Of a DNA stretch of 51,939 nucleotides, positions 5,862 to 33,469 are shown piece after piece. The position numbers and the translations under genes were made by a program. Below the pieces are notes generated by a model, which did not search any database, had not been told where the DNA came from, and worked only from the letters and a program-made list of their open reading frames with translations. The first letter of the stretch is position 1, and each line of letters begins with the position of its first letter. The DNA is from a virus (Duplodnaviria > Caudoviricetes): positions 1 through 51,939 of the IMG/VR virus record IMGVR_UViG_3300044998_001165; one strand, given 5' to 3'.

Positions 5862-6026
5862 ATGGAAGATGAGGGTTATGTAAAAATCCTTGTTGAATAC
5901 ACCTATAGTGATAGTGAATTTTATTTCTTCGCGTATGTTAAAACAAATATGCTGAAGAATCATGATGGCTTGCGTGAACTTCCTATTTTCCTGACACAAC
6001 AAGAACCCCTGTTCCATGCGAGCTAA
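5862..6026 (+). CDS. Small hypothetical protein (moron-like insert)
   Basis: ORF overlapping the start of the next + strand gene; ATG at 5862 chosen as start. Confidence 0.45.
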   Translation: MEDEGYVKILVEYTYSDSEFYFFAYVKTNMLKNHDGLRELPIFLTQQEPLFHAS

Positions 6027-6219
6027 GTCTAACTTTCATAGCGTTCTCCTTTCCTGCATTGCGCAGGAAGGGGGGACTGAGAAATTTGCTCGGGCAAACG
6101 ATTTATCATATCAAACCGTCCAGCGCGCCCGCAGACCGGATACTAAACCGACCATGACACTCATTTATATTCTTGTGTCAAAATATAAACAAAAGATTAT
6201 TTTTGAGTCTTCGGAATAA
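6016..6219 (+). CDS. Small XRE/Cro-like HTH protein
   Basis: EKFARANDLSYQTVQR...KPTMTLI resembles an XRE HTH; followed by a terminator. Confidence 0.6.
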   Translation: MRAKSNFHSVLLSCIAQEGGTEKFARANDLSYQTVQRARRPDTKPTMTLIYILVSKYKQKIIFESSE

Positions 6220-6974: not shown

Positions 6975-7441
6975 TCTTGTGCCTCCCGATCCTCACGGAG
7001 TTTCTTTACTTTTAAGGCATAGAAGGCATCGTTGAACTCATATGGGTTTTCATCTTCCAAGATGGCAAAACAGGCACAGAGGTTAAGCATAGCATCGAGT
7101 TCAAACAACAGTTTTCTCCGCAACATCAGTTCATCCCAAAGGGCAAACACTTTCGTAAAGTCAATCTTACCACCACTGCGAACATTTCGCACCTCATTCA
7201 TGTAAGCATCCATCTCATCAAGAAAGGCAGGCGACAATCCCATACCCGCCAATTTGATAGCCTCATCAATCTTTAGTTTGGATTCATAAGGTATGATGGA
7301 CGATTCGGCAATGACGTACCACTGCTCCCCCGTGTTTGGATTTCGGTAAGCCGGCAACAAGTGCGGGTTCTTAGAATTAGACAACTGCCCGATCTGCTGT
7401 TGCCTTTGAAAACGTTTGAATATATTTTTTAACCAACCCAT
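6809..7441 (-). CDS. Tail assembly chaperone (gpG-like)
   Basis: Slippery GAT TTT TTT TTA near the 3' end with open -1 frame; upstream of the tape measure gene. Confidence 0.7.
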   Translation of the reverse strand: MGWLKNIFKRFQRQQQIGQLSNSKNPHLLPAYRNPNTGEQWYVIAESSIIPYESKLKIDEAIKLAGMGLSPAFLDEMDAYMNEVRNVRSGGKIDFTKVFALWDELMLRRKLLFELDAMLNLCACFAILEDENPYEFNDAFYALKVKKLREDREAQDFFLRIAISMLPHLKDISEHDFLTYLQQSQSMLSKVSRASVVKFSPNMPKPSTSP

Positions 7442-17062: not shown

Positions 17063-17656
17063 TTAAATCTCACTGTAGAACTCACTGTAGTAGCCGTCAT
17101 CGTCCGATGCGCCCTGCACCACAAAGCCCGTATCTTCCACGATCTCCGGCAGGGAGTCCTCAATCTCGGATTCTAACCGGCGAAGCATCGCCTTGGTGAT
17201 CTTGTCCGTAAACTGAATCAGGGGCGCGTAGCCGTTTTTTTCCAAGCCTCGCCACTTTTCGCGTTTCATCACCAAGCGATCTTTGGAAGGCTTACCATCC
17301 AAACCGATTGCCGGCTCAAAGTCCGCCTCGGTCAAGATCACAGGCTTGTAGGTCGGAAACTTTTTGTAGCCCTCCCCGTCCTGCATATTCGGAACGGATT
17401 GCCTCGGACGACCCTCCGTAACCGGTGGTGTGGGTGGTGGTGTTGCCGGATAAGCCGTGCCATTGATCGGACGCGGTGCCGACGTTTGTAAGTGCGCCGG
17501 CAGGTAGTCTTGGTGGTTGAGGATGAACTCCTCAATGGCGCGGGCGTAGAGTGCTGCCTTAGATAACTTCATACCACTTGCGACAATGTCTGCCTTATGA
17601 GATAAATCAGTAGGGCAATCAATAGTCAATCGACTTAAAGTTTTTTCTTTAACCAT
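17063..17656 (-). CDS. Ribbon-helix-helix (CopG/Arc-like) regulator, first gene of the leftward operon
   Basis: SRLTIDCPTDLSHKADIVASGMKLSKAALYARAIEEFI N-terminus; Pro-rich linker; divergent from the repressor. Confidence 0.7.
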   Translation of the reverse strand: MVKEKTLSRLTIDCPTDLSHKADIVASGMKLSKAALYARAIEEFILNHQDYLPAHLQTSAPRPINGTAYPATPPPTPPVTEGRPRQSVPNMQDGEGYKKFPTYKPVILTEADFEPAIGLDGKPSKDRLVMKREKWRGLEKNGYAPLIQFTDKITKAMLRRLESEIEDSLPEIVEDTGFVVQGASDDDGYYSEFYSEI

Positions 17657-17665
17657 TTGCGTAAT

Positions 17666-17746
17666 TAACTTGATTCGCGTTGCGTTACGCTACTCGCGTT
17701 GAGTAACTTGATTCGCGTTGCGTTACGCTACTCGCGTTGAGTAACT
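17666..17746. repeat. 38-bp perfect tandem duplication in the switch region
   Basis: TAACTTGATTCGCGTTGCGTTACGCTACTCGCGTTGAG x2 plus a partial third copy. Confidence 0.95.
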
Positions 17747-17751
17747 CAATA

Positions 17752-17759
17752 CAAAGATA
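17752..17759 (-). promoter_or_regulatory. Bacteroidota -7 box (TATCTTTG) for the leftward replication operon
   Basis: Exact TAnnTTTG match. Confidence 0.65.
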
Positions 17760-17813
17760 CTGCGTATAATCATTAAGTCAACTGCCTATAGCAGTATTAA
17801 GAATCATTAACTT

Positions 17814-18119
17814 ATGCAAGATATTGGTCATATATTACGAGAACTAAGAGAATCTCGCCAAATCTCTCAAAATTCTTTGGGAGAACTCTTGGGTATGACT
17901 CAAAGTGCCATTTATCGTATTGAGTCTGGAAATAGCTCTCCTACGATAGAAACGATAACAAAGATCGCCGACTATTTTCATGTCTCGGTAGATTATCTTC
18001 TGGGGCGTGTTCCGTCCGGCGACACCATTTCCCAGCACGGCTCTGACATTAACAATAGCACGGTTCTCGTGGGTAAAAGTATCAGCAATGGTTTTGATGC
18101 TGAATGTCGGGAAAACTAA
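17814..18119 (+). CDS. XRE-family (CI-like) repressor, apparently frameshift-truncated
   Basis: LRELRESRQISQNSLGELLGMTQSAIYRIESGNSSPTIETITKIADYFHVSVDYLLGR is a canonical HTH_3; coiled coil continues in the -1 frame to 18226. Confidence 0.9.
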   Translation: MQDIGHILRELRESRQISQNSLGELLGMTQSAIYRIESGNSSPTIETITKIADYFHVSVDYLLGRVPSGDTISQHGSDINNSTVLVGKSISNGFDAECREN

Positions 18120-27234: not shown

Positions 27235-28935
27235 CTAAACGGTTCCTTTTATGGTAATGACATTTGATTTAACAGTCAACTCATTAATCCGAGCTAAGTA
27301 TTCGCCATTTCCAATCTTAAATTTTATACGCTTATCTAAGTCTATGGATTTGAGTAACTCGCAAGTCTTAACAACCGTCATGGTGAAATCCCAACCGACA
27401 AAAGGCGAATTCGGATTATTGGGTTCTTCGCCAAAATAGAAACGATCATACAGATTTTCGTCCTGAAAATAGAATTTATTGAGGCTTGGTGGGTTATTTC
27501 GGTCGCCATACCAATAATCGTAGTTGTAATGGAAGTCTTCACTGCCCGGATTGCGATTTCGGCGTAGGATTTTTGCGTTATCATGTGCAGAGTTGCCATC
27601 CCAAATGAGGAGTTTAGGATTCAAACAAACCCCCGAATTTAGGAGCAGGTTGTTATCGTCCCGCGATTCAATATTTAGGATGGTATCGCTGATGAAGGGT
27701 ATCTCCTGCCATCCCGAAAGCACATCCCGTTCGATCCCGTCGCGACGATAACGGGAAGGGGCGAATTTCAGTGCATACACTTTTTCACCCTCAAGGCGCG
27801 GATCAACGACGTTTCGATCAAAATCGATCTTTTCATTATATAAAAAAGAGGCTTCATTGCCTACGAAATCGCGGGGGTCTTTGGCATAATCGAATGTATA
27901 ATAACGAGGCAAACCATCCGTAAACGTAAAACAGGGCTTTTCGATGATGTTCTTATCCTCCAAACTACTCGCATCATACCAGATTGAATTATCCGAAATA
28001 TCCCGCGTCCGCTCGAATTTGACGACTCCGTTTTTGATGCGATAATCGGCATTAAACACAGGCTTTAAGTCATCCAAAAGGCGTGCTCCGTTGATGTTGG
28101 GATCGTTTTCTTCTCGGTAGGAATGATAATCAAAAGTACCTTCCTTGACCGGTGCAACAAAGTAAAGGGTATTGTAATAAGGCGAATTCGGGTTGTTAAA
28201 GATGGACGAATCGAACGTTAATCCACACTGATCGCAGGCGTTTTGCATCATTTCACGCACCAAGAACGCAGGATGCCCTTGCCCACAACCCACCACGTAG
28301 TTTTGAATGAGGTTTATCAGATTATTAACCTCATTATTCAGCGAAAAGGTAATCTCTAAACCATCCAGCCCCAAAAATGAGGTTATCGCATTAATGATAG
28401 CTATGATAGCCTCAATAACCAAAGCCAGCGGTTTCAATACCAAAACGACTGTAATAACCAACAGCATTCCAAATACCAAATACATATCGTGCATCGTATT
28501 GGAGCGCATCTCGTTGCAATAGCGAACGAACTTGTGTTGTCTGGAGCGAAAGCCGTTATAATCCGCCGTCGTCGAAACCCGCGCCAAACACCCCCAATCG
28601 GGGTCATTTTCCGTCAAACTACCTGTTACATAGCATTCTCCGGCACACCATTCCAAACTACCCAAGTCCAATTTGCCGGCAAAAAGCAGATGCCCATCGC
28701 AACAATCATCATAGATATTGACTAAGAGTATTTTCGTCTTTCCGTTTCGCAAATCATAGATAATCTCATCATAGATCAGATTATAAGCCTCACCATAAAA
28801 CTTTAATTCCGAGCCAAACCCCACCGCACGAAGTCCCGTTTCGTCGGAAATGCGATACGTAAACTCAGCCGATTGCAAGCCCTGAACGTCGGAGGCTTTG
28901 ATCGGTTGATTGTTGATGGTGATGCGGTAAGCCAT
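27235..28935 (-). CDS. Putative tail tip/hub protein with internal hydrophobic segment
   Basis: First long gene of the tail-tip operon; MMQNACDQCGLTFDSS and DDLKPVFNADYRIKNG resemble hub proteins; ends VITIKG. Confidence 0.55.
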   Translation of the reverse strand: MAYRITINNQPIKASDVQGLQSAEFTYRISDETGLRAVGFGSELKFYGEAYNLIYDEIIYDLRNGKTKILLVNIYDDCCDGHLLFAGKLDLGSLEWCAGECYVTGSLTENDPDWGCLARVSTTADYNGFRSRQHKFVRYCNEMRSNTMHDMYLVFGMLLVITVVLVLKPLALVIEAIIAIINAITSFLGLDGLEITFSLNNEVNNLINLIQNYVVGCGQGHPAFLVREMMQNACDQCGLTFDSSIFNNPNSPYYNTLYFVAPVKEGTFDYHSYREENDPNINGARLLDDLKPVFNADYRIKNGVVKFERTRDISDNSIWYDASSLEDKNIIEKPCFTFTDGLPRYYTFDYAKDPRDFVGNEASFLYNEKIDFDRNVVDPRLEGEKVYALKFAPSRYRRDGIERDVLSGWQEIPFISDTILNIESRDDNNLLLNSGVCLNPKLLIWDGNSAHDNAKILRRNRNPGSEDFHYNYDYWYGDRNNPPSLNKFYFQDENLYDRFYFGEEPNNPNSPFVGWDFTMTVVKTCELLKSIDLDKRIKFKIGNGEYLARINELTVKSNVITIKGTV

Positions 28936-28972
28936 ATGAATAGATATCGCAATTTAAGATTACCATTCACCG

Positions 28973-29155
28973 CTATTCGCTATCTGTCAACGCTTTATTT
29001 TCAACTTCCGTACCACACAATACCGTACTCCCCTCCACATTTTGGGCAATGGAGATGGTGTTTCCTACCAGTATAACAACCGTAATCCCTTGTTCTGTCG
29101 TAACGACTTCCTGTAAGGCTTGTGTTATAATCTTAGTGGCATTCTCTATATTCAT
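28973..29155 (-). CDS. Hypothetical protein
   Basis: 60-aa ORF downstream of a -7 box. Confidence 0.5.
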   Translation of the reverse strand: MNIENATKIITQALQEVVTTEQGITVVILVGNTISIAQNVEGSTVLCGTEVENKALTDSE

Positions 29156-29174
29156 GCGAATAAAATTAATTTTA

Positions 29175-29182
29175 CAAATATA
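29175..29182 (-). promoter_or_regulatory. Bacteroidota -7 box (TATATTTG) for the tail-tip operon
   Basis: Exact TAnnTTTG match. Confidence 0.55.
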
Positions 29183-29218
29183 ACATAGAGAACAATACCT
29201 TGCCTATACCCCTATTAA

Positions 29219-29250
29219 TAAAAAAATCCTTTAGCTGTTAACTAAAGGAT
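29219..29250 (-). terminator. Intrinsic terminator of the putative sRNA
   Basis: 9-bp perfect stem followed by a T run on the minus strand. Confidence 0.75.
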
Positions 29251-29291
29251 CGGCATAGATATAATCTTTCACTGCCTTGCGACAGCGCAAC
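29219..29291 (-). ncRNA. Putative antisense small RNA
   Basis: TACTTTTG box at 29295-29302, CTGTC-GCAA-GGCAG hairpin, AGTGAAAGATTAT antisense to two early leaders, terminator ATCCTTTAG/CTAAAGGAT plus T-tract. Confidence 0.65.
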
Positions 29292-29328
29292 GCACAAAAG
29301 TAACGATATTGCCATAAAATCCAAGCCT

Positions 29329-29429
29329 TAACATTTTTTATACACCTTAATATTGTGTAGTTCAAAATTTTGCCGTTACTTTGTACCATAATCTTTCACT
29401 CAAACAAACAGCAACAATGACAGCAACAA
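29329..29429 (+). promoter_or_regulatory. Early promoter/leader cassette copy 1
   Basis: Near-duplicate of 30485-30585; TACAC-N9-GTGTA palindrome, TTACTTTG near-consensus -7 box, shared leader and first codons. Confidence 0.8.
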
Positions 29430-29941
29430 TCAACCGCTCGCAAATCTTCAAAAACGCTTGGAACTTCGTTCGCACCTTAGCGTTGAGTATCTCTGAAGCC
29501 CTCAAGAGGGCATGGGCAGAGGCGAAAAACGGAATCGGCGCAATGGCAGTAATTGCGGAAGAGGTAAAAACGGTAACTTTTGAAGTTACGACGCGTTCGC
29601 TCGGTAAAGTTACGGCAATTGTCGAAGTTACGGAAAAAGGAATAAAAAACGGCGCACCGGTAGGAAAAATCATGAAGGACGGGAAAGAGGTGTGTGCTAT
29701 AAAATCAGTAGAACGCTTTACTTATTTTATCAAAGACCACTCCGCATCGTTGAAAGTAACGATCAACGGGGTTGATGGCAAAATTTTGATAAGCAAAGAG
29801 CAAGGCGATTCTTGCTTTTTTTCCCCGCGAGTTGACGCGGTAACTGAGCGAAAATGGAGCGAAAGCGAAGGATGCTACGTAGATATTACGACGGAATACA
29901 TAAACGGCAAAAAAATTGTAAGAAAATCTTTTGATTATTAA
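29417..29941 (+). CDS. Early hypothetical protein (start ATG 29417)
   Basis: IFKNAW...SEALKRAWAEAK N-terminal motif common in small phage proteins. Confidence 0.8.
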   Translation: MTATINRSQIFKNAWNFVRTLALSISEALKRAWAEAKNGIGAMAVIAEEVKTVTFEVTTRSLGKVTAIVEVTEKGIKNGAPVGKIMKDGKEVCAIKSVERFTYFIKDHSASLKVTINGVDGKILISKEQGDSCFFSPRVDAVTERKWSESEGCYVDITTEYINGKKIVRKSFDY

Positions 29942-29964
29942 TTCACCCTTAAACTCTTAAAGCA

Positions 29965-30285
29965 ATGACAGCAACACAGATGACCACGAGCCATATTGCA
30001 CGCATAACCGAAATGACTCAAAAAATCGAGGCTATCGGGGAACTTAGAGCATCTAAATTTCATGCCCTTGCAAATACTGACAAAATCAGGGCAAGGGGTA
30101 TGATGGAGTTGGAAAAAGATTTAGCGCAAGACTTTGATGTGTTTGTAACGAAAACTATCAAGGATGCAGAGGAGGCTTTATCATTCATTTTGCCCCTCTG
30201 CCAAGCCGACCCAATATGGGAAGAATTTAGCTCTGGGGAGTGGCTTGACTGGATTAATTCTCACCATGATTATAAAAAACAATGA
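29965..30285 (+). CDS. Early hypothetical protein
   Basis: 106-aa ORF starting MTAT like its neighbours. Confidence 0.75.
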   Translation: MTATQMTTSHIARITEMTQKIEAIGELRASKFHALANTDKIRARGMMELEKDLAQDFDVFVTKTIKDAEEALSFILPLCQADPIWEEFSSGEWLDWINSHHDYKKQ

Positions 30286-30506
30286 AGCACCCCGCAACCA
30301 AAGAAACGATAACCCGCCTCCTAAAAGAAGCGGGTTATGTTAATGAAAACAGACGAATTCAACGCGCCCGCTTCTGTAATGATACCGGAACGAATCCTTG
30401 TACATTTGATAAGTGGATCAACGGACAAGTCGCTATATCATTAACTACGCTCGAATCCTTAGCCCAAAAACTATCCATAAACATTAACATTTTTTACACA
30501 CCTTAA
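30282..30506 (+). CDS. XRE-like HTH protein, paralog 1
   Basis: FCNDTGTNPCTFDKWINGQVAISLTTL; similar to 31800-32018. Confidence 0.75.
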   Translation: MKHPATKETITRLLKEAGYVNENRRIQRARFCNDTGTNPCTFDKWINGQVAISLTTLESLAQKLSININIFYTP

Positions 30507-30585
30507 TATTGTGTATTCCAAACCAGTCTGCTATCTTTGTAGCATAATCTTTCACTCAAACAAACAGCAACAATGACAGCAACAA
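30485..30585 (+). promoter_or_regulatory. Early promoter/leader cassette copy 2
   Basis: TACACA-N9-TGTGTA palindrome (30495-30515), TATCTTTG -7 box (30532-30539), leader identical to copy 1. Confidence 0.8.
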
Positions 30586-30932
30586 CATTATCCCGCGTTA
30601 TTTTTGGCAATTTCGCCTTAAATTACAGCGACCGCAAGGATACGCCTTACTTTTATGTCAGCAAGGCTGACGGAACTTTGGTAGGCGATTGTCAATATTC
30701 GATAGAGATTCACAATCTCTACGAGATTCAACGCTGGGCTATTTTGGATAGCTTAAAAGATGTTGAAGAAATTACTGATCCCGAAATCGCGCTTGATTAT
30801 TTGAGAAATACACTAAGCCTACCTGATTTCGATAGCTACATTCCAGAGGCTTTCAATCAATTAAGCGAAGACGATAAGCAGTATTGCTACCTAATTTGCT
30901 TTGAATTTGCACTCAATAAACTCTATGCTTAA
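30573..30932 (+). CDS. Early acidic hypothetical protein
   Basis: ORF directly after cassette 2. Confidence 0.75.
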   Translation: MTATTLSRVIFGNFALNYSDRKDTPYFYVSKADGTLVGDCQYSIEIHNLYEIQRWAILDSLKDVEEITDPEIALDYLRNTLSLPDFDSYIPEAFNQLSEDDKQYCYLICFEFALNKLYA

Positions 30933-31233
30933 TTCACCGATCATCTGCCTCCGTTTCATCGCAGTTTTTTGCGATGAAACGGGCTTAAATTTTGGGGCTA
31001 AAGATTTAGAATTTAACCCCGATACCAAAGAAATTACCGGATGGTTAACGGTTGGTAAAGGAGACTTTTCGACTTTTTGTAGTCTGCTAACGACCGAATG
31101 CCACGCTTTAGGACTTTTGTCGGAAATGCTCCGAATCGAAATAAAAGGTTTATCCTTAGCAGAAACGGACTTGTTATTTAGTGAATTAGAGCAGAAAGCA
31201 ATCGAAAATAATATCGTGTGCTTTGCCGAATAA
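30925..31233 (+). CDS. Early hypothetical protein (start ATG 30925)
   Basis: ORF overlapping the upstream stop by 8 nt. Confidence 0.65.
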   Translation: MLNSPIICLRFIAVFCDETGLNFGAKDLEFNPDTKEITGWLTVGKGDFSTFCSLLTTECHALGLLSEMLRIEIKGLSLAETDLLFSELEQKAIENNIVCFAE

Positions 31234-31302
31234 GAGCCCTTTCGTTAAGACACCTAACCCGCTCCGGCGGGGACTTATTCAAACCATTAAACTTATAAAG
31301 CA

Positions 31303-31800
31303 ATGAATATAGTTAACTGTACGCCGCACCCCATTACCCTTTTGGGTGTGGACGGTGAAATGGTAGCCGAAATTCAACCATCGGGCATTGTCCCACGCGC
31401 AACCAAAACCACAGAAACGGTTGCACATGTTGAAATAAACGGGAATCAAATCCCCGTTATCGTTCCAAAATTTGGGGGGGTATCCAACCTTCCCGAGCCA
31501 GAAGAAGGAACTATGTTTATAGTGTCGCTTATCGTACAGCAAGCCTGCCCCGAGCGTACCGATCTTCTCATCGTCGAGGATGTAGTGCGGGACGGCAGTG
31601 TAATCGTAGGCTGTAAAGCCTTTGGCGCGCCCACACCTTCTGAAGAAGCGAAGGTTCTTGCTGAGAACTTGCGCATGATGTACGACGGATGGGCGTACGT
31701 AGCTTGGTGCGGAGGTGATAATCCACATAATACCCCGCACAGTGTTTCGCAAGTGGTGCAAGAGTTGATGATTAAACATACAGGCAAAACATTATATTAA
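31303..31800 (+). CDS. Conserved viral protein of unknown function (N.TPH family)
   Basis: NCTPHPITL...PSGIVPR...LPEPEEGTMFIVS...RTDLL...VRDG..VGC pattern recurrent in phage proteins. Confidence 0.8.
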   Translation: MNIVNCTPHPITLLGVDGEMVAEIQPSGIVPRATKTTETVAHVEINGNQIPVIVPKFGGVSNLPEPEEGTMFIVSLIVQQACPERTDLLIVEDVVRDGSVIVGCKAFGAPTPSEEAKVLAENLRMMYDGWAYVAWCGGDNPHNTPHSVSQVVQELMIKHTGKTLY

Positions 31801-32018
31801 TGAAGCACCCCGACACGCAACTCATTACAACTCGCCTTATGATCGAGGCGGGTTTCCGTAATAAAAACTGGACATATGACCAAAAGGTGTTCTGTGAAGC
31901 AACGGGGCTTAAACCCCGAACACTTGCAGGCTACTTGGATGGTAAATCATCTATCAGCGTGCAGAAAGTACGCAAGTTATTAGAAACCCTAAACCTCAAA
32001 ACGTTTGATATTGTATGA
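31800..32018 (+). CDS. XRE-like HTH protein, paralog 2
   Basis: MKHP start; FCEATGLKPRTLAGYLDGKSSISV. Confidence 0.75.
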   Translation: MKHPDTQLITTRLMIEAGFRNKNWTYDQKVFCEATGLKPRTLAGYLDGKSSISVQKVRKLLETLNLKTFDIV

Positions 32019-32197
32019 CGTACCACACCCCCATCCAACTCGGATTAACACCTAAACATTTCGACACGCCTGCGGATTGCCTGCGGGCGTGCGAACTTAT
32101 AAGGCAATATATGCAACGCAAGGTCATCCGTGTACCGATTGGCAAGCGTGCGATTCAGGCTTTAGAGATTAAGGCGCATCGGTTAACCATTACCTAA
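32015..32197 (+). CDS. Small basic hypothetical protein
   Basis: ATGA overlap; ends at the terminator. Confidence 0.6.
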   Translation: MTYHTPIQLGLTPKHFDTPADCLRACELIRQYMQRKVIRVPIGKRAIQALEIKAHRLTIT

Positions 32198-32220
32198 CCC
32201 GCTTCGGCGGGTTTTCTTTT
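32196..32220 (+). terminator. Intrinsic terminator ending the early island
   Basis: AACCCGC-TTCG-GCGGGTT plus T-tract. Confidence 0.85.
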
Positions 32221-32329
32221 ACCTGCTACATAACAAAGCGATCGAAAATGACTATCCCAATAAGGATAATTCCACGAACAATATCGCATTTCAATTAAGT
32301 CTATGAAAGTAAAAGCCTGCATAAATATA

Positions 32330-33469
32330 TTACCCCTCAATACTCTCACTAATCACGATCGGCATCAGTAACATCAGCAACTCCTCATTGCTTTGATTGT
32401 ATTCCGGCAAGACCACGGCTGCGCGGGAAGGGGTATCCAATTCCAAGGTTACCTCTTCGGAATCAATGTTGTTCAGCACCTCCGTCATCAGTGAAATATT
32501 GAACCCGATTTCAATTGCCTGCCCTTCATAGATACAAGAGATTCTTTCACGACCTTTGTTACCATCCAAATTATCAGAAGAGACCAACACTTCCGATTTA
32601 TGAAACGCAAATTTTGCCAAGCGATCTCCCGCATTAGCATAGTTTTTCAAGCGTTTTATGGTGGATAGCAAAAATCCTTTTCCAATCATTGCTTGGTTCG
32701 GACTGGATTTCGGGATGACGCTTTCATAATCCGGGAAAGTAGCGTCAATCAGTCGGCACACTAATAGTGTACTGTCAATATAAAAGAAGGCATTCCGGTC
32801 GGTGTATTGTAAAATGATGTCTTCATTTGCGTTGGTGCAGGCGTTTTTGACCAACTTCAAAGCCTTGGCTGGCAAAATAAAATTGGCGGGTTCATTCGCC
32901 TTAATATCCGTGCGCCGACATCGCACTAAGCGGTGCGCATCTGTAGCAACAAAGTCCGCATACTCCATTCCGAATTGAAAATATACCCCGGTTAAGGCGA
33001 GCTTCATTTCATCAGTTGAAACCGCAAAAATCGTTCGATCAATAATAGCATTCATTACATCGGGATTGATGGTAATGGAATGCGTCTCATCCGCTTTGGT
33101 GAACCGCGGGAAGTCCGCTCCATCCCTGCCGGTAATGTCATACTCCCCGTTATTGGTGATGATTTTGACAATCGGCGAAATGCTGTCCGGTAATAATTGA
33201 AATGTTAGCTCCTGCTCCGGTAATGCCTTAAGGGTATCAAGAATGATTTTGCCGGGCAAGGCTATGTTAAATATGGATTTCGGATCACATTCCACCGATA
33301 GCACGGTTTGCATCATGATCTCCATATCGGTAGCTGTCAGGAATAATTGTCCTTCCTGTACCTCAAAAAGAATATTGGCAACGATCGGCAAGACGGGCTT
33401 GGAAGGCACTGTTCCCAAAATTATGCCGAGGCGTTTTTGTAATTCGGATGACGAAACAGTGAATTTCAT
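32330..33469 (-). CDS. dnaN: DNA polymerase III beta subunit (sliding clamp)
   Basis: MKFTVSS...PVLPIVANILF...TATDME, ATDAHRL, CRLIDATFPDYESVIP, IGFN, LLMPI; full three-domain length. Confidence 0.95.
   Translation of the reverse strand: MKFTVSSSELQKRLGIILGTVPSKPVLPIVANILFEVQEGQLFLTATDMEIMMQTVLSVECDPKSIFNIALPGKIILDTLKALPEQELTFQLLPDSISPIVKIITNNGEYDITGRDGADFPRFTKADETHSITINPDVMNAIIDRTIFAVSTDEMKLALTGVYFQFGMEYADFVATDAHRLVRCRRTDIKANEPANFILPAKALKLVKNACTNANEDIILQYTDRNAFFYIDSTLLVCRLIDATFPDYESVIPKSSPNQAMIGKGFLLSTIKRLKNYANAGDRLAKFAFHKSEVLVSSDNLDGNKGRERISCIYEGQAIEIGFNISLMTEVLNNIDSEEVTLELDTPSRAAVVLPEYNQSNEELLMLLMPIVISESIEG

Follow-up and report, generated by a model that had tools for sequence, protein, structure and literature searches.

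A candidate shufflable anti-defence island with a Crn4b-like gene and Aca-like regulators in a probable Bacteroidota phage

The viral record IMGVR_UViG_3300044998_001165 (Duplodnaviria; Caudoviricetes) is a DNA of 51,939 bp, hereafter the window, which is a complete closed phage genome with direct terminal repeats measured at 127 bp. Nearly all of its genes are on the minus strand, and the subject of this report is an island at 29.3-32.2 kb that is read from the plus strand in the order P1-gA-gB-HTH1-P2-gD-gE-stem-loop repeat-gF-HTH2-gH-stem-loop repeat and T-run, where P1 and P2 are two copies of a promoter-leader cassette and HTH1 and HTH2 encode helix-turn-helix (HTH) proteins. We consider it fairly probable that this is a shufflable, hypervariable anti-defence island with feedback control like that of the anti-CRISPR-associated (Aca) regulators, in a probable Bacteroidota phage. 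The cassettes are repeats of each other, both regulators have recognizable HTH domains, gF is homologous to the ring nuclease Crn4 and retains its catalytic residues, and the cargo genes differ in related phages and in co-occurring variants. An initial annotation of this DNA had called the island the only long plus-strand block, which holds for multi-gene blocks; single plus-strand genes are found at 17814-18119 (HTH_3) and perhaps at 6016-6219.

The two cassettes, each of 107 bp, are located at 29323-29429 (P1) and 30479-30585 (P2) on the plus strand, which confirms the near-identical promoter/leader cassettes of the initial annotation with a start at 29323, not 29329. They share a 44-nt part (29323-29366 vs. 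30479-30522, 89% identity) and a 51-nt part (29379-29429 vs. 30535-30585, 98% identity), both with a spacing of 1156 nt between the copies, and the 12 nt between the two parts are unlike. For a 42-mer derived from the repeat, the window has exactly two sites, with 0.00 expected. P1 comprises the AT-rich TTAACATT, a palindrome, a TTG, a -7-like box, an A/C-rich leader of about 30 nt, the ATG and the first codons of gA, and P2 likewise includes the ATG of gD. The TTG-N20-TATCTTTG of P2 (30509-30539) matches the Bacteroidota-type promoter pattern exactly; in P1, the -33-like TTG (29353-29355) and the -7-like TTACTTTG (29376-29383), which has one mismatch, are spaced as in P2. Judged by this pattern, the cassette is a putative sigma-ABfr-type promoter (TTG-N20-TAnnTTTG) that would presumably be active early in infection. 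As the promoter is of the Bacteroidota type, the comparison with the repeated early promoters of T4-like phages holds as an analogy only.

The G-poor leader is without a Shine-Dalgarno sequence and is followed by ATG ACA. Folded over 75 nt, it is essentially unstructured, with -1.5 kcal/mol (z +1.2) for P1 and -5.6 kcal/mol (z +0.15) for P2. Direct reading of the leader places adenines at positions -3, -11, -13, -14 and -15 from the ATG, and in PMC7366714, adenine is reported to favour translation at seven positions in this phylum without Shine-Dalgarno sequences, of which the leader has five. The 12-nt sequence ATGACAGCAACA is found at 29417, 29965 and 30573 (three sites vs. 0.04 expected), and every copy opens an open reading frame (ORF), namely gA, gB and gD, in agreement with the three genes of identical start that had been pointed out before. 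The palindrome, ACAC-N9-GTGT, covers the -33 TTG in both cassettes (29342-29358 in P1 and 30498-30514 in P2), and in P2 it is a perfect TACACA-N9-TGTGTA. The operator candidate ACACCTTAATATTGTGT is exact in both cassettes, and the sole other site of the window within three mismatches has three. Both promoter copies abut the end of an HTH gene or an intergenic region, not a stem-loop.

HTH1 (30282-30506, plus strand, 74 aa), whose final codons are inside P2, and HTH2 (31800-32018, plus strand, 72 aa) are Cro/XRE-type proteins that both start with MKHP and are identical at 24 of 66 positions (36%; E 2e-15). Both pass the cut-offs of Pfam, with 24.6 bits for HTH_26 (cut-off 22) and 26.1 bits for HTH_3 (cut-off 23), and the paralogy proposed for them in the initial annotation is thus borne out. 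The two proteins are basic, with isoelectric points (pI) of 9.4 and 9.7. Start and stop codons overlap at both junctions, gB-HTH1 (ATGA) and gF-HTH2 (TAATG). In its operon, HTH1 comes last, behind cargo genes without functional assignment; HTH2 is the last but one and, being right behind the Crn4 homologue in one operon, occupies an Aca-like position. The best PDB hits of the HTH profile, with E-values of 0.01-0.024, are PezA (0.01), a LexA-like HTH and a HigA-like antidote (0.024). The family is small: at E<=1e-6, 11 clusters were found among 5.8 billion proteins, two of which are the window's own, and no relative was found in representative bacterial and archaeal genomes. With the profile, matches were found in only two records among viral contigs (G001 and G002, described below), in one fragment of 1,070 bp (L007) among metagenome contigs and in none of the genome contigs.

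The gene between the upstream stem-loop repeat and HTH2, gF (31303-31800, plus strand, 165 aa), is the only cargo gene with a functional match. A phmmer search against PDB sequences matched gF to Crn4a (9sma, E 6.7e-9) and Crn4b (9r7b, E 3.8e-8), both over residues 2-109, and to Crn4 H15A (9qs9, E 8.9e-8) over residues 47-109. T7 and H9 (in NCTPH) and R96 (in VVRD) of gF align with T13, H15 and R112 of Crn4a, of which H15 and R112 are essential for catalysis (PMC12830947); across 11 relatives of gF, T7 and H9 never vary and R96 hardly varies. The alignment of gF with Crn4b is almost gapless, and the insertion of Crn4a is absent from gF. In an AlphaFold2 (AF2) model, residues 1-110 have block-mean predicted local distance difference test (pLDDT) values of 87-95, and the C-terminal extension of 55 residues (110-165) is poorly modelled, with pLDDT <50 over 119-156. 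All seven PDB hits of this model at E<=0.001 by Foldseek are Crn4 chains (best E 5.8e-10; target template-modelling score, TMt, 0.59-0.71), followed by a hit at E 0.31; the Crn4 fold is reported as unique by its authors (PMC12830947).

Modelled as a homodimer, gF scored 0.76, compared to 0.00 for the best of three controls; among proteins of solved structure, 20 of 30 one-chain pairs and 1 of 23 single chains reach this mark. The dimer runs had a contact agreement of at least 97% and a partner pLDDT of at least 90, and the interface includes residues 37-55 and 105-112, in keeping with the Crn4 homodimer, whose beta-hairpin arm embraces the second subunit; because Crn4 dimers have already been solved, this result may be model memory and speaks for likeness, not for binding. 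By sequence, fold and catalytic His/Arg, residues 1-110 of gF are predicted to be a Crn4b-like ring-nuclease domain, which would be enzymatically active. The structural comparison of the cargo that the initial annotation had called for thus gave a Crn4 match in both sequence and fold for a gene whose stop overlaps the start of HTH2. Of the candidate new inhibitors that it proposed, gF is an anti-CRISPR-type enzyme by homology, yet one of an established family, not a new inhibitor. Crn4b orthologues of phages and plasmids have been proposed to be anti-CRISPRs, with confirmation outstanding (PMC12830947). According to PMC13577387, the type II Panoptes guard system can be triggered by Crn4 expression, so that carrying such a gene has a cost and there is a reason for its tight regulation.

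Relatives of gF are encoded in 147 confirmed stretches of viral contigs, compared to the 11 phage genomes with Crn4 counted in PMC12830947, and viral ring nucleases of the Crn4 fold may therefore be commoner than reported. At 80 such viral loci (L013-L092), the Crn4-like genes are usually found amid small genes without known relatives and replication genes (for single-stranded DNA-binding protein (SSB), DnaB-like and ERCC4 proteins), and several of them bear N-terminal extensions of 60-290 residues.

The unit gF-HTH2-gH is bounded on both sides by a 20-nt direct repeat, ACCTAACCCGCTYCGGCGGG, with a stem-loop (two sites vs. 0.01 expected). The upstream copy (31252-31271, plus strand) is the left edge of the unit, and the downstream copy (32192-32211) is followed by TTTTCTTTT, together with which it constitutes an intrinsic-terminator-like end of the island (32192-32219, plus strand). 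A T-run is absent after the upstream copy and present after the downstream copy, which suggests that gF-HTH2-gH was inserted at a former terminator, now permitting read-through from P2. The second module is composite, consisting of P2-gD-gE and the gF-HTH2-gH unit; of the two modules with an HTH gene near the end that had been described earlier, the position of the HTH genes stands and the simple build of the second module does not. All eight island ORFs have coding margins of 0.07-0.22 in their own frames, with gE the highest at 0.22, compared to -0.005 to 0.30 for seven control small genes and -0.07 to 0.10 for shadow ORFs.

Other repeats and structures were noticed within the island. A 24-nt repeat, ACCMTTAAACTYWTAAAGCAATGA, at 29945-29968 and 31283-31306 (88% identity) precedes and includes the start codons of gB and gF, and it may be a second common translation-start region or an old junction. 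A perfect hairpin of 14-15 bp (30950-30983; -26 kcal/mol, z -5.9) is located just 3' of the gD stop in the 5' coding part of gE and may be an attenuator or an RNA-stability element of the P2 operon. The TTAATTCACC common to the regions after gA and gD was dismissed, as a repeated 10-mer is expected by chance within 3 kb, and so was a remnant of an HTH gene end upstream of P1, where the similarity is the repeat itself. A search of Rfam with 28900-32400 gave a single chance-level row (E 0.6).

Two other viral records contain the exact 30-nt leader in two copies each: G001, a fragment of 27 kb, and G002, a record of 48.8 kb with terminal repeats, with spacings of 1229 and 546 nt, respectively. 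An exact 26-mer of the leader was found in none of the metagenome contigs and none of the genome contigs. Eighteen non-island proteins of G002 match those of the window at just 20-47% identity, and the six cassette copies of the window, G001 and G002 are identical from CTTTGTA to ATGACA, over 43 columns, except in two of them. The HTH gene of these relatives is 47-50% identical to HTH2, and in both G002 and the window the island is upstream of the same nuclease-like gene. Given that the cassette pair and the HTH gene are kept in the distant G002, the island is ancestral to the phage lineage. Its cargo is another matter. In G001, a gA-like gene and a 108-aa gene precede the HTH gene, and a 102-aa and an 84-aa gene follow P2; in G002, a single 79-aa gene precedes the HTH gene, and the genes after P2 are the same as in G001. 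Fragment L007 contains the end of a 79-aa-type gene, an HTH gene, a cassette whose leader differs, a 72-aa gene, a homologue of gH (60% identity) and a gene of the 84-aa type. No homologues of the clamp and of gH were found in G001 and G002. The cassettes themselves are mosaic: the spacer and the -7 box of the window's P1 are like those of L007, and those of P2 are like those of P1 in G001 and G002. The operator-like segment is uniform within a genome and different between genomes, a pattern that fits either co-evolution with the resident HTH protein or gene conversion. Two DNA methyltransferase-like genes are found after the island of G002 on the opposite strand (L008, 301-2250) and may be further counter-restriction functions.

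Sequences of the island are also present in hot-spring and microbial-mat metagenomes, where five runs each have at least 95% of the island's sampled words; three of these runs are a possible source of the window DNA. Co-occurring variants were sought in contigs only, aligned at 80% likeness. Two contigs of 641 and 638 nt from two runs of the possible source sample cover gF and the initial HTH codons (31258-31838) with eight differences in 581 nt. Upstream of 31258, the exact start of the stem-loop, they contain the 3' end of a 79-aa-type gene, and past 31838 they are unlike the window, with 9-12 letters there that are consistent with an HTH gene of the L007 type. Another contig links 29551 (gA codon 45) to 31807 via 779 other letters; the shorter side of its joints has 32 letters, and joints at 80% likeness are often from other organisms, so that the reading taken here, a related phage, is to be weighed accordingly. 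A minor contig of the main run has a G001-type operator and G001-type cargo around P2. These variants indicate that the Crn4 gene moves between contexts. The breakpoints are found at the stem-loop repeat (31258), in the cassette (near 30517-30586), at the end of the N-terminal module of gA and in the conserved N-terminal part of the HTH gene (31838). In all, the same HTH family is found beside varied cargo in the window, G001, G002, L007 and the variant contigs, and the cargo swaps at the repeats for which the initial annotation had proposed to search are evident both in the relatives, where the leader pair and the HTH gene are kept, and in the variant contigs. Recombination at the repeats would be the mechanism of this exchange.

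The remaining cargo genes are also on the plus strand. gA (29417-29941, 174 aa; pI 9.2), which has 41% identity to the cargo gene that comes first in G001, consists of a conserved N-terminal module (residues 1-50) and a variable C-terminal part. An exhaustive HMMER search with gA found 44 proteins at E<=0.001, including the query's own representative; 38 of them match within about the first 107 residues only (nearly all within the first 80), and five long repeat proteins match elsewhere. Three relatives of different lengths have 88-94% identity over residues 1-52. That the relatives of gA are alike in the N-terminal part only agrees with a breakpoint at the end of this module. Pfam searches with 42 relatives gave nothing informative, and tblastn of gA against phage records gave two weak N-terminal hits. 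For gB (29965-30285, 106 aa), searches of Pfam, PHROGs, NCBIfam, PDB sequences and phage records gave nothing, and gD (30573-30932, 119 aa) and gE (30925-31233, 102 aa) have no match in any library or collection tried; tblastn of all three against phage records was null. gB, gD, gE and gF are acidic, with pI values of 4.2-5.1 (5.1 for gB, 4.2 for gD and 4.4 for gE). gH (32015-32197, 60 aa; pI 10.0) is modelled as a confident two-helix hairpin (pLDDT 94), for which no fold match was found at E<=0.001. PDB sequence searches with gA, gB, gD, gE, gH and two cargo genes of G001 found nothing significant, with repeat-type rows only and no matched stretch for gE; the ESM Atlas offered no usable lead for gA and gD, and in NCBIfam the 14 island proteins matched nothing above chance. 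An anti-defence role of gA, gB, gD, gE and gH is suggested by the company that they keep.

Based on these results, we propose that each cassette copy starts its own rightward operon, in which the accessory genes are small and mostly acidic. The gF homodimer would cut the cyclic oligoadenylates cA3 and cA4, which are alarm signals of type III CRISPR systems and of some cyclic-oligonucleotide-based antiphage signalling systems (CBASS), and would thereby blunt these defences. The HTH proteins, which are translationally coupled to the preceding gene, would most likely provide Aca-like negative feedback: by binding to the palindrome over the -33 element of both cassettes, they may close the operons after an initial burst. 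Cargo exchange among related phages may use the cassette and stem-loop repeats as homology patches.

Several observations weigh against this proposal. The presumed recognition helix differs between HTH1 and HTH2, yet the palindromes of P1 and P2 are identical, so that at most one of the two proteins fits the palindrome; in the relatives, another sequence is found at the position of the palindrome, with no comparable palindrome. No solved Aca protein is among the eight PDB hits of the HTH profile at E<=1. The link between Crn4 and HTH genes is not general: at 80 other viral loci with gF relatives, kept from the 147 confirmed stretches and with crude picking of neighbours, a credible Pfam HTH was found in none of the same-strand neighbours, whether downstream (0 of 66) or upstream (0 of 72), one upstream neighbour having an HTH_55 row at 4e-4 with no matched stretch. 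With 0 of 138 neighbours, the coupling is a feature of this lineage and not of Crn4 generally. Five of the six non-HTH cargo genes are without an informative match, the relatives of gA all being uncharacterized. In gF, R92 of Crn4a, which stacks on adenine, is replaced by Leu76.

Some of these points agree with a different reading, namely a general region for early functions or host takeover, with HTH proteins that act as Cro-like lytic timers of an early-to-middle switch and a ring nuclease that is just one accessory passenger, and not a specific anti-defence unit under Aca-type feedback. In favour of it, the HTH family has few members, all in this lineage, Crn4 homologues elsewhere are without HTH neighbours, most of the cargo is unexplained and the island adjoins replication genes (clamp and nuclease). 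However, the apparent main switch of this phage is a separate, stronger HTH_3 gene and its divergent partner (17.1-18.1 kb), and the palindrome is confined to the two cassettes, so that no regulon would extend beyond the island. The cargo is also dispensable and exchanged among relatives, which is unexpected for core timing genes. We therefore regard host takeover as unlikely, though as an alternative to be kept in mind.

Much less probable still are toxin-antitoxin or superinfection-exclusion modules, in which the Xre-type HTH proteins would be antitoxins with control over their own operons and small neighbours such as gB, gH and others the toxins. Tightly overlapping gene pairs are in keeping with such modules, as are the antitoxin-type top PDB hits of the HTH profile (PezA at 0.01 and the HigA-like antidote at 0.024), but such E-values are weak and generic for HTH domains. 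Searches of Pfam, PHROGs, NCBIfam and PDB sequences linked no cargo gene, gB and gH included, to a toxin family; gF is by homology a ring nuclease, and with no integrase found, the prophage lifestyle that favours such modules is not indicated. It is likewise very improbable that the repeats are a neutral by-product, either a recent tandem duplication or an assembly artefact, without a regulatory or recombinational role. Short-read contigs do break at the repeat, where a collapsed contig of 43 nt sits; against an artefact or a recent event are the closed genome with its terminal repeats, the two cassette copies in three phage records whose shared proteins are just 20-47% identical, the run of 43 columns that is nearly invariant over six copies (two variable columns) and the unrelated genes behind the two copies. 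The shufflable anti-defence island with Aca-like feedback is the reading that we adopt, and the inference of the initial annotation is supported in this respect.

Back to back with P1 is a leftward unit (29218-29324, minus strand) with a match to the Bacteroidota-type promoter (29324->29295) and a terminator-like hairpin (29251->29225) followed by T7. The distance from promoter to hairpin is within about 45 nt, and the unit precedes the tail-region genes and the first leftward gene (28973-29155). The leftward stretch of about 70 nt folds with z -4.3 into two or three predicted hairpins and contains 13 nt antisense to the leader; on the plus strand, this 13-mer is at 29261-29273, and its only sites in the window are 29261, 29388 and 30544. 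The middle part of an RNA from this stretch would be complementary to the first 13 nt of both putative operon mRNAs, and the predicted antisense duplex has -25.9 kcal/mol, compared to -13.1 +/- 2.9 in shuffles (0 of 300 as good). A speculative reading, to which we give little credence, is that the invariant leader is an RNA target and that a trans-acting antisense RNA of about 70 nt, made by the phage, shuts off or stabilizes the anti-defence operons; if true, this would amount to a counterpart of Aca at the post-transcriptional level, in a phylum without Shine-Dalgarno-based initiation. The same promoter-terminator-gene layout is found in G002 (L010, about 7245-7330), but without significant complementarity (41 and 115 of 300 shuffles as good). 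The third copy of the 13-mer may simply be a decayed cassette, and another possibility is that the leftward late genes have in this unit a leader under terminator control (antitermination type).

On the minus strand of the window, PHROGs and Pfam identified genes for a large terminase subunit, a primase with a BT4734-like N-terminal domain, a Gam-like protein, a sliding clamp, an exonuclease, an amidase endolysin, a holin and a tail-region protein with an SprB repeat. BT4734-like and SprB domains are typical of Bacteroidota. The promoter pattern TTG-N17-21-TAnnTTTG, scanned with the Bacteroidota consensus as given in PMC7366714, has seven plus-strand and six minus-strand matches in the window, compared to about 1.7 per strand in 50 shuffles. 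From the two domains and this excess, the host is probably a member of the Bacteroidota. No integrase was found among the window proteins with PHROGs and Pfam, which does not indicate a prophage lifestyle, and the phage is probably virulent. The island had no blastn match among 50,697 phage records, and with the clamp and the 566-aa tail protein as single-protein locus queries, none was confirmed among viral contigs. The HTH_3 gene mentioned above (17814-18119, plus strand, 101 aa; E 6e-17) is divergent from a 197-aa gene (17063-17656, minus strand), with a leftward promoter match at 17781->17752; the locus of 17063-18119 looks like a CI/Cro-type switch though no integrase was found. Close to the left end of the record, the minus strand also encodes tRNA-Ile (GAT; 151-224) and tRNA-Trp (CCA; 613-685).

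For phages of Bacteroidota, the number of known anti-defence genes is small, and the island offers a concrete phage Crn4b-like gene in a setting like that of anti-CRISPR (acr)-aca operons. The cassette and the HTH family together are a guilt-by-association handle, by which at least ten further small genes in four related elements become anti-defence candidates. The compact and highly conserved cassette may also be a strong expression signal in Bacteroidota.

Compared to known systems, gF resembles Crn4b (9r7b; Chi et al., Nat Commun 2025, PMC12830947) in sequence, fold, predicted arm-swapped homodimer and conserved Thr, His and Arg, and, like the phage and plasmid forms of Crn4b, it is without the insertion of about 10 residues found in Crn4a (PMC12830947). 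It differs in that its extension of 55 residues is C-terminal, whereas the phage and plasmid orthologues described in PMC12830947 have N-terminal extensions, in that the adenine-stacking R92 is Leu76 and in that the gene is directly before an HTH gene in an island with a repeated promoter. The type II toxin-antitoxin systems are different, as no recognizable toxin partner was found beside either HTH gene in the library searches given above.

The acr-aca operons (Aca1-Aca14, including csx20-aca14) are similar in having a small DNA-binding regulator right after an anti-defence gene in the same operon, one palindromic site, in the island a candidate operator, in the promoters of two neighbouring operons and variable cargo before a conserved regulator. 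The nearest example in this respect, as reported in PMC13551039 (NAR 2026), is the ring nuclease Csx20, which is in one operon with Aca14, the same Aca inverted repeat being found in neighbouring promoters. The island differs from these operons in its two divergent HTH paralogues with one palindrome, in its Bacteroidota-type promoter and in its unstructured 5' untranslated region, whereas Aca1 and Aca2 bind hairpin RNA motifs.

The promoter early stem-loop (PeSL) elements of T4-type phages (PMC2839356, PMC4122927) are likewise short repeated regulatory sequences amid many genes without known relatives, and they bound insertions and replacements that distinguish related phages. In the island, the promoter repeat and the stem-loop repeat are separate and form no composite of early promoter and terminator stem-loop of the kind that defines PeSL; moreover, its promoter is not sigma-70-like, its repeat reaches through the leader into the first codons, and it belongs to an unrelated virus of 52 kb. 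The island thus combines features of known kinds, namely acr-aca operons, viral ring nucleases and PeSL-like modular shuffling, and is no new category. Distinctive are the near-invariant Bacteroidota-type cassette across divergent phages, the link between a Crn4 homologue and an HTH gene and the population-level evidence for cargo exchange.

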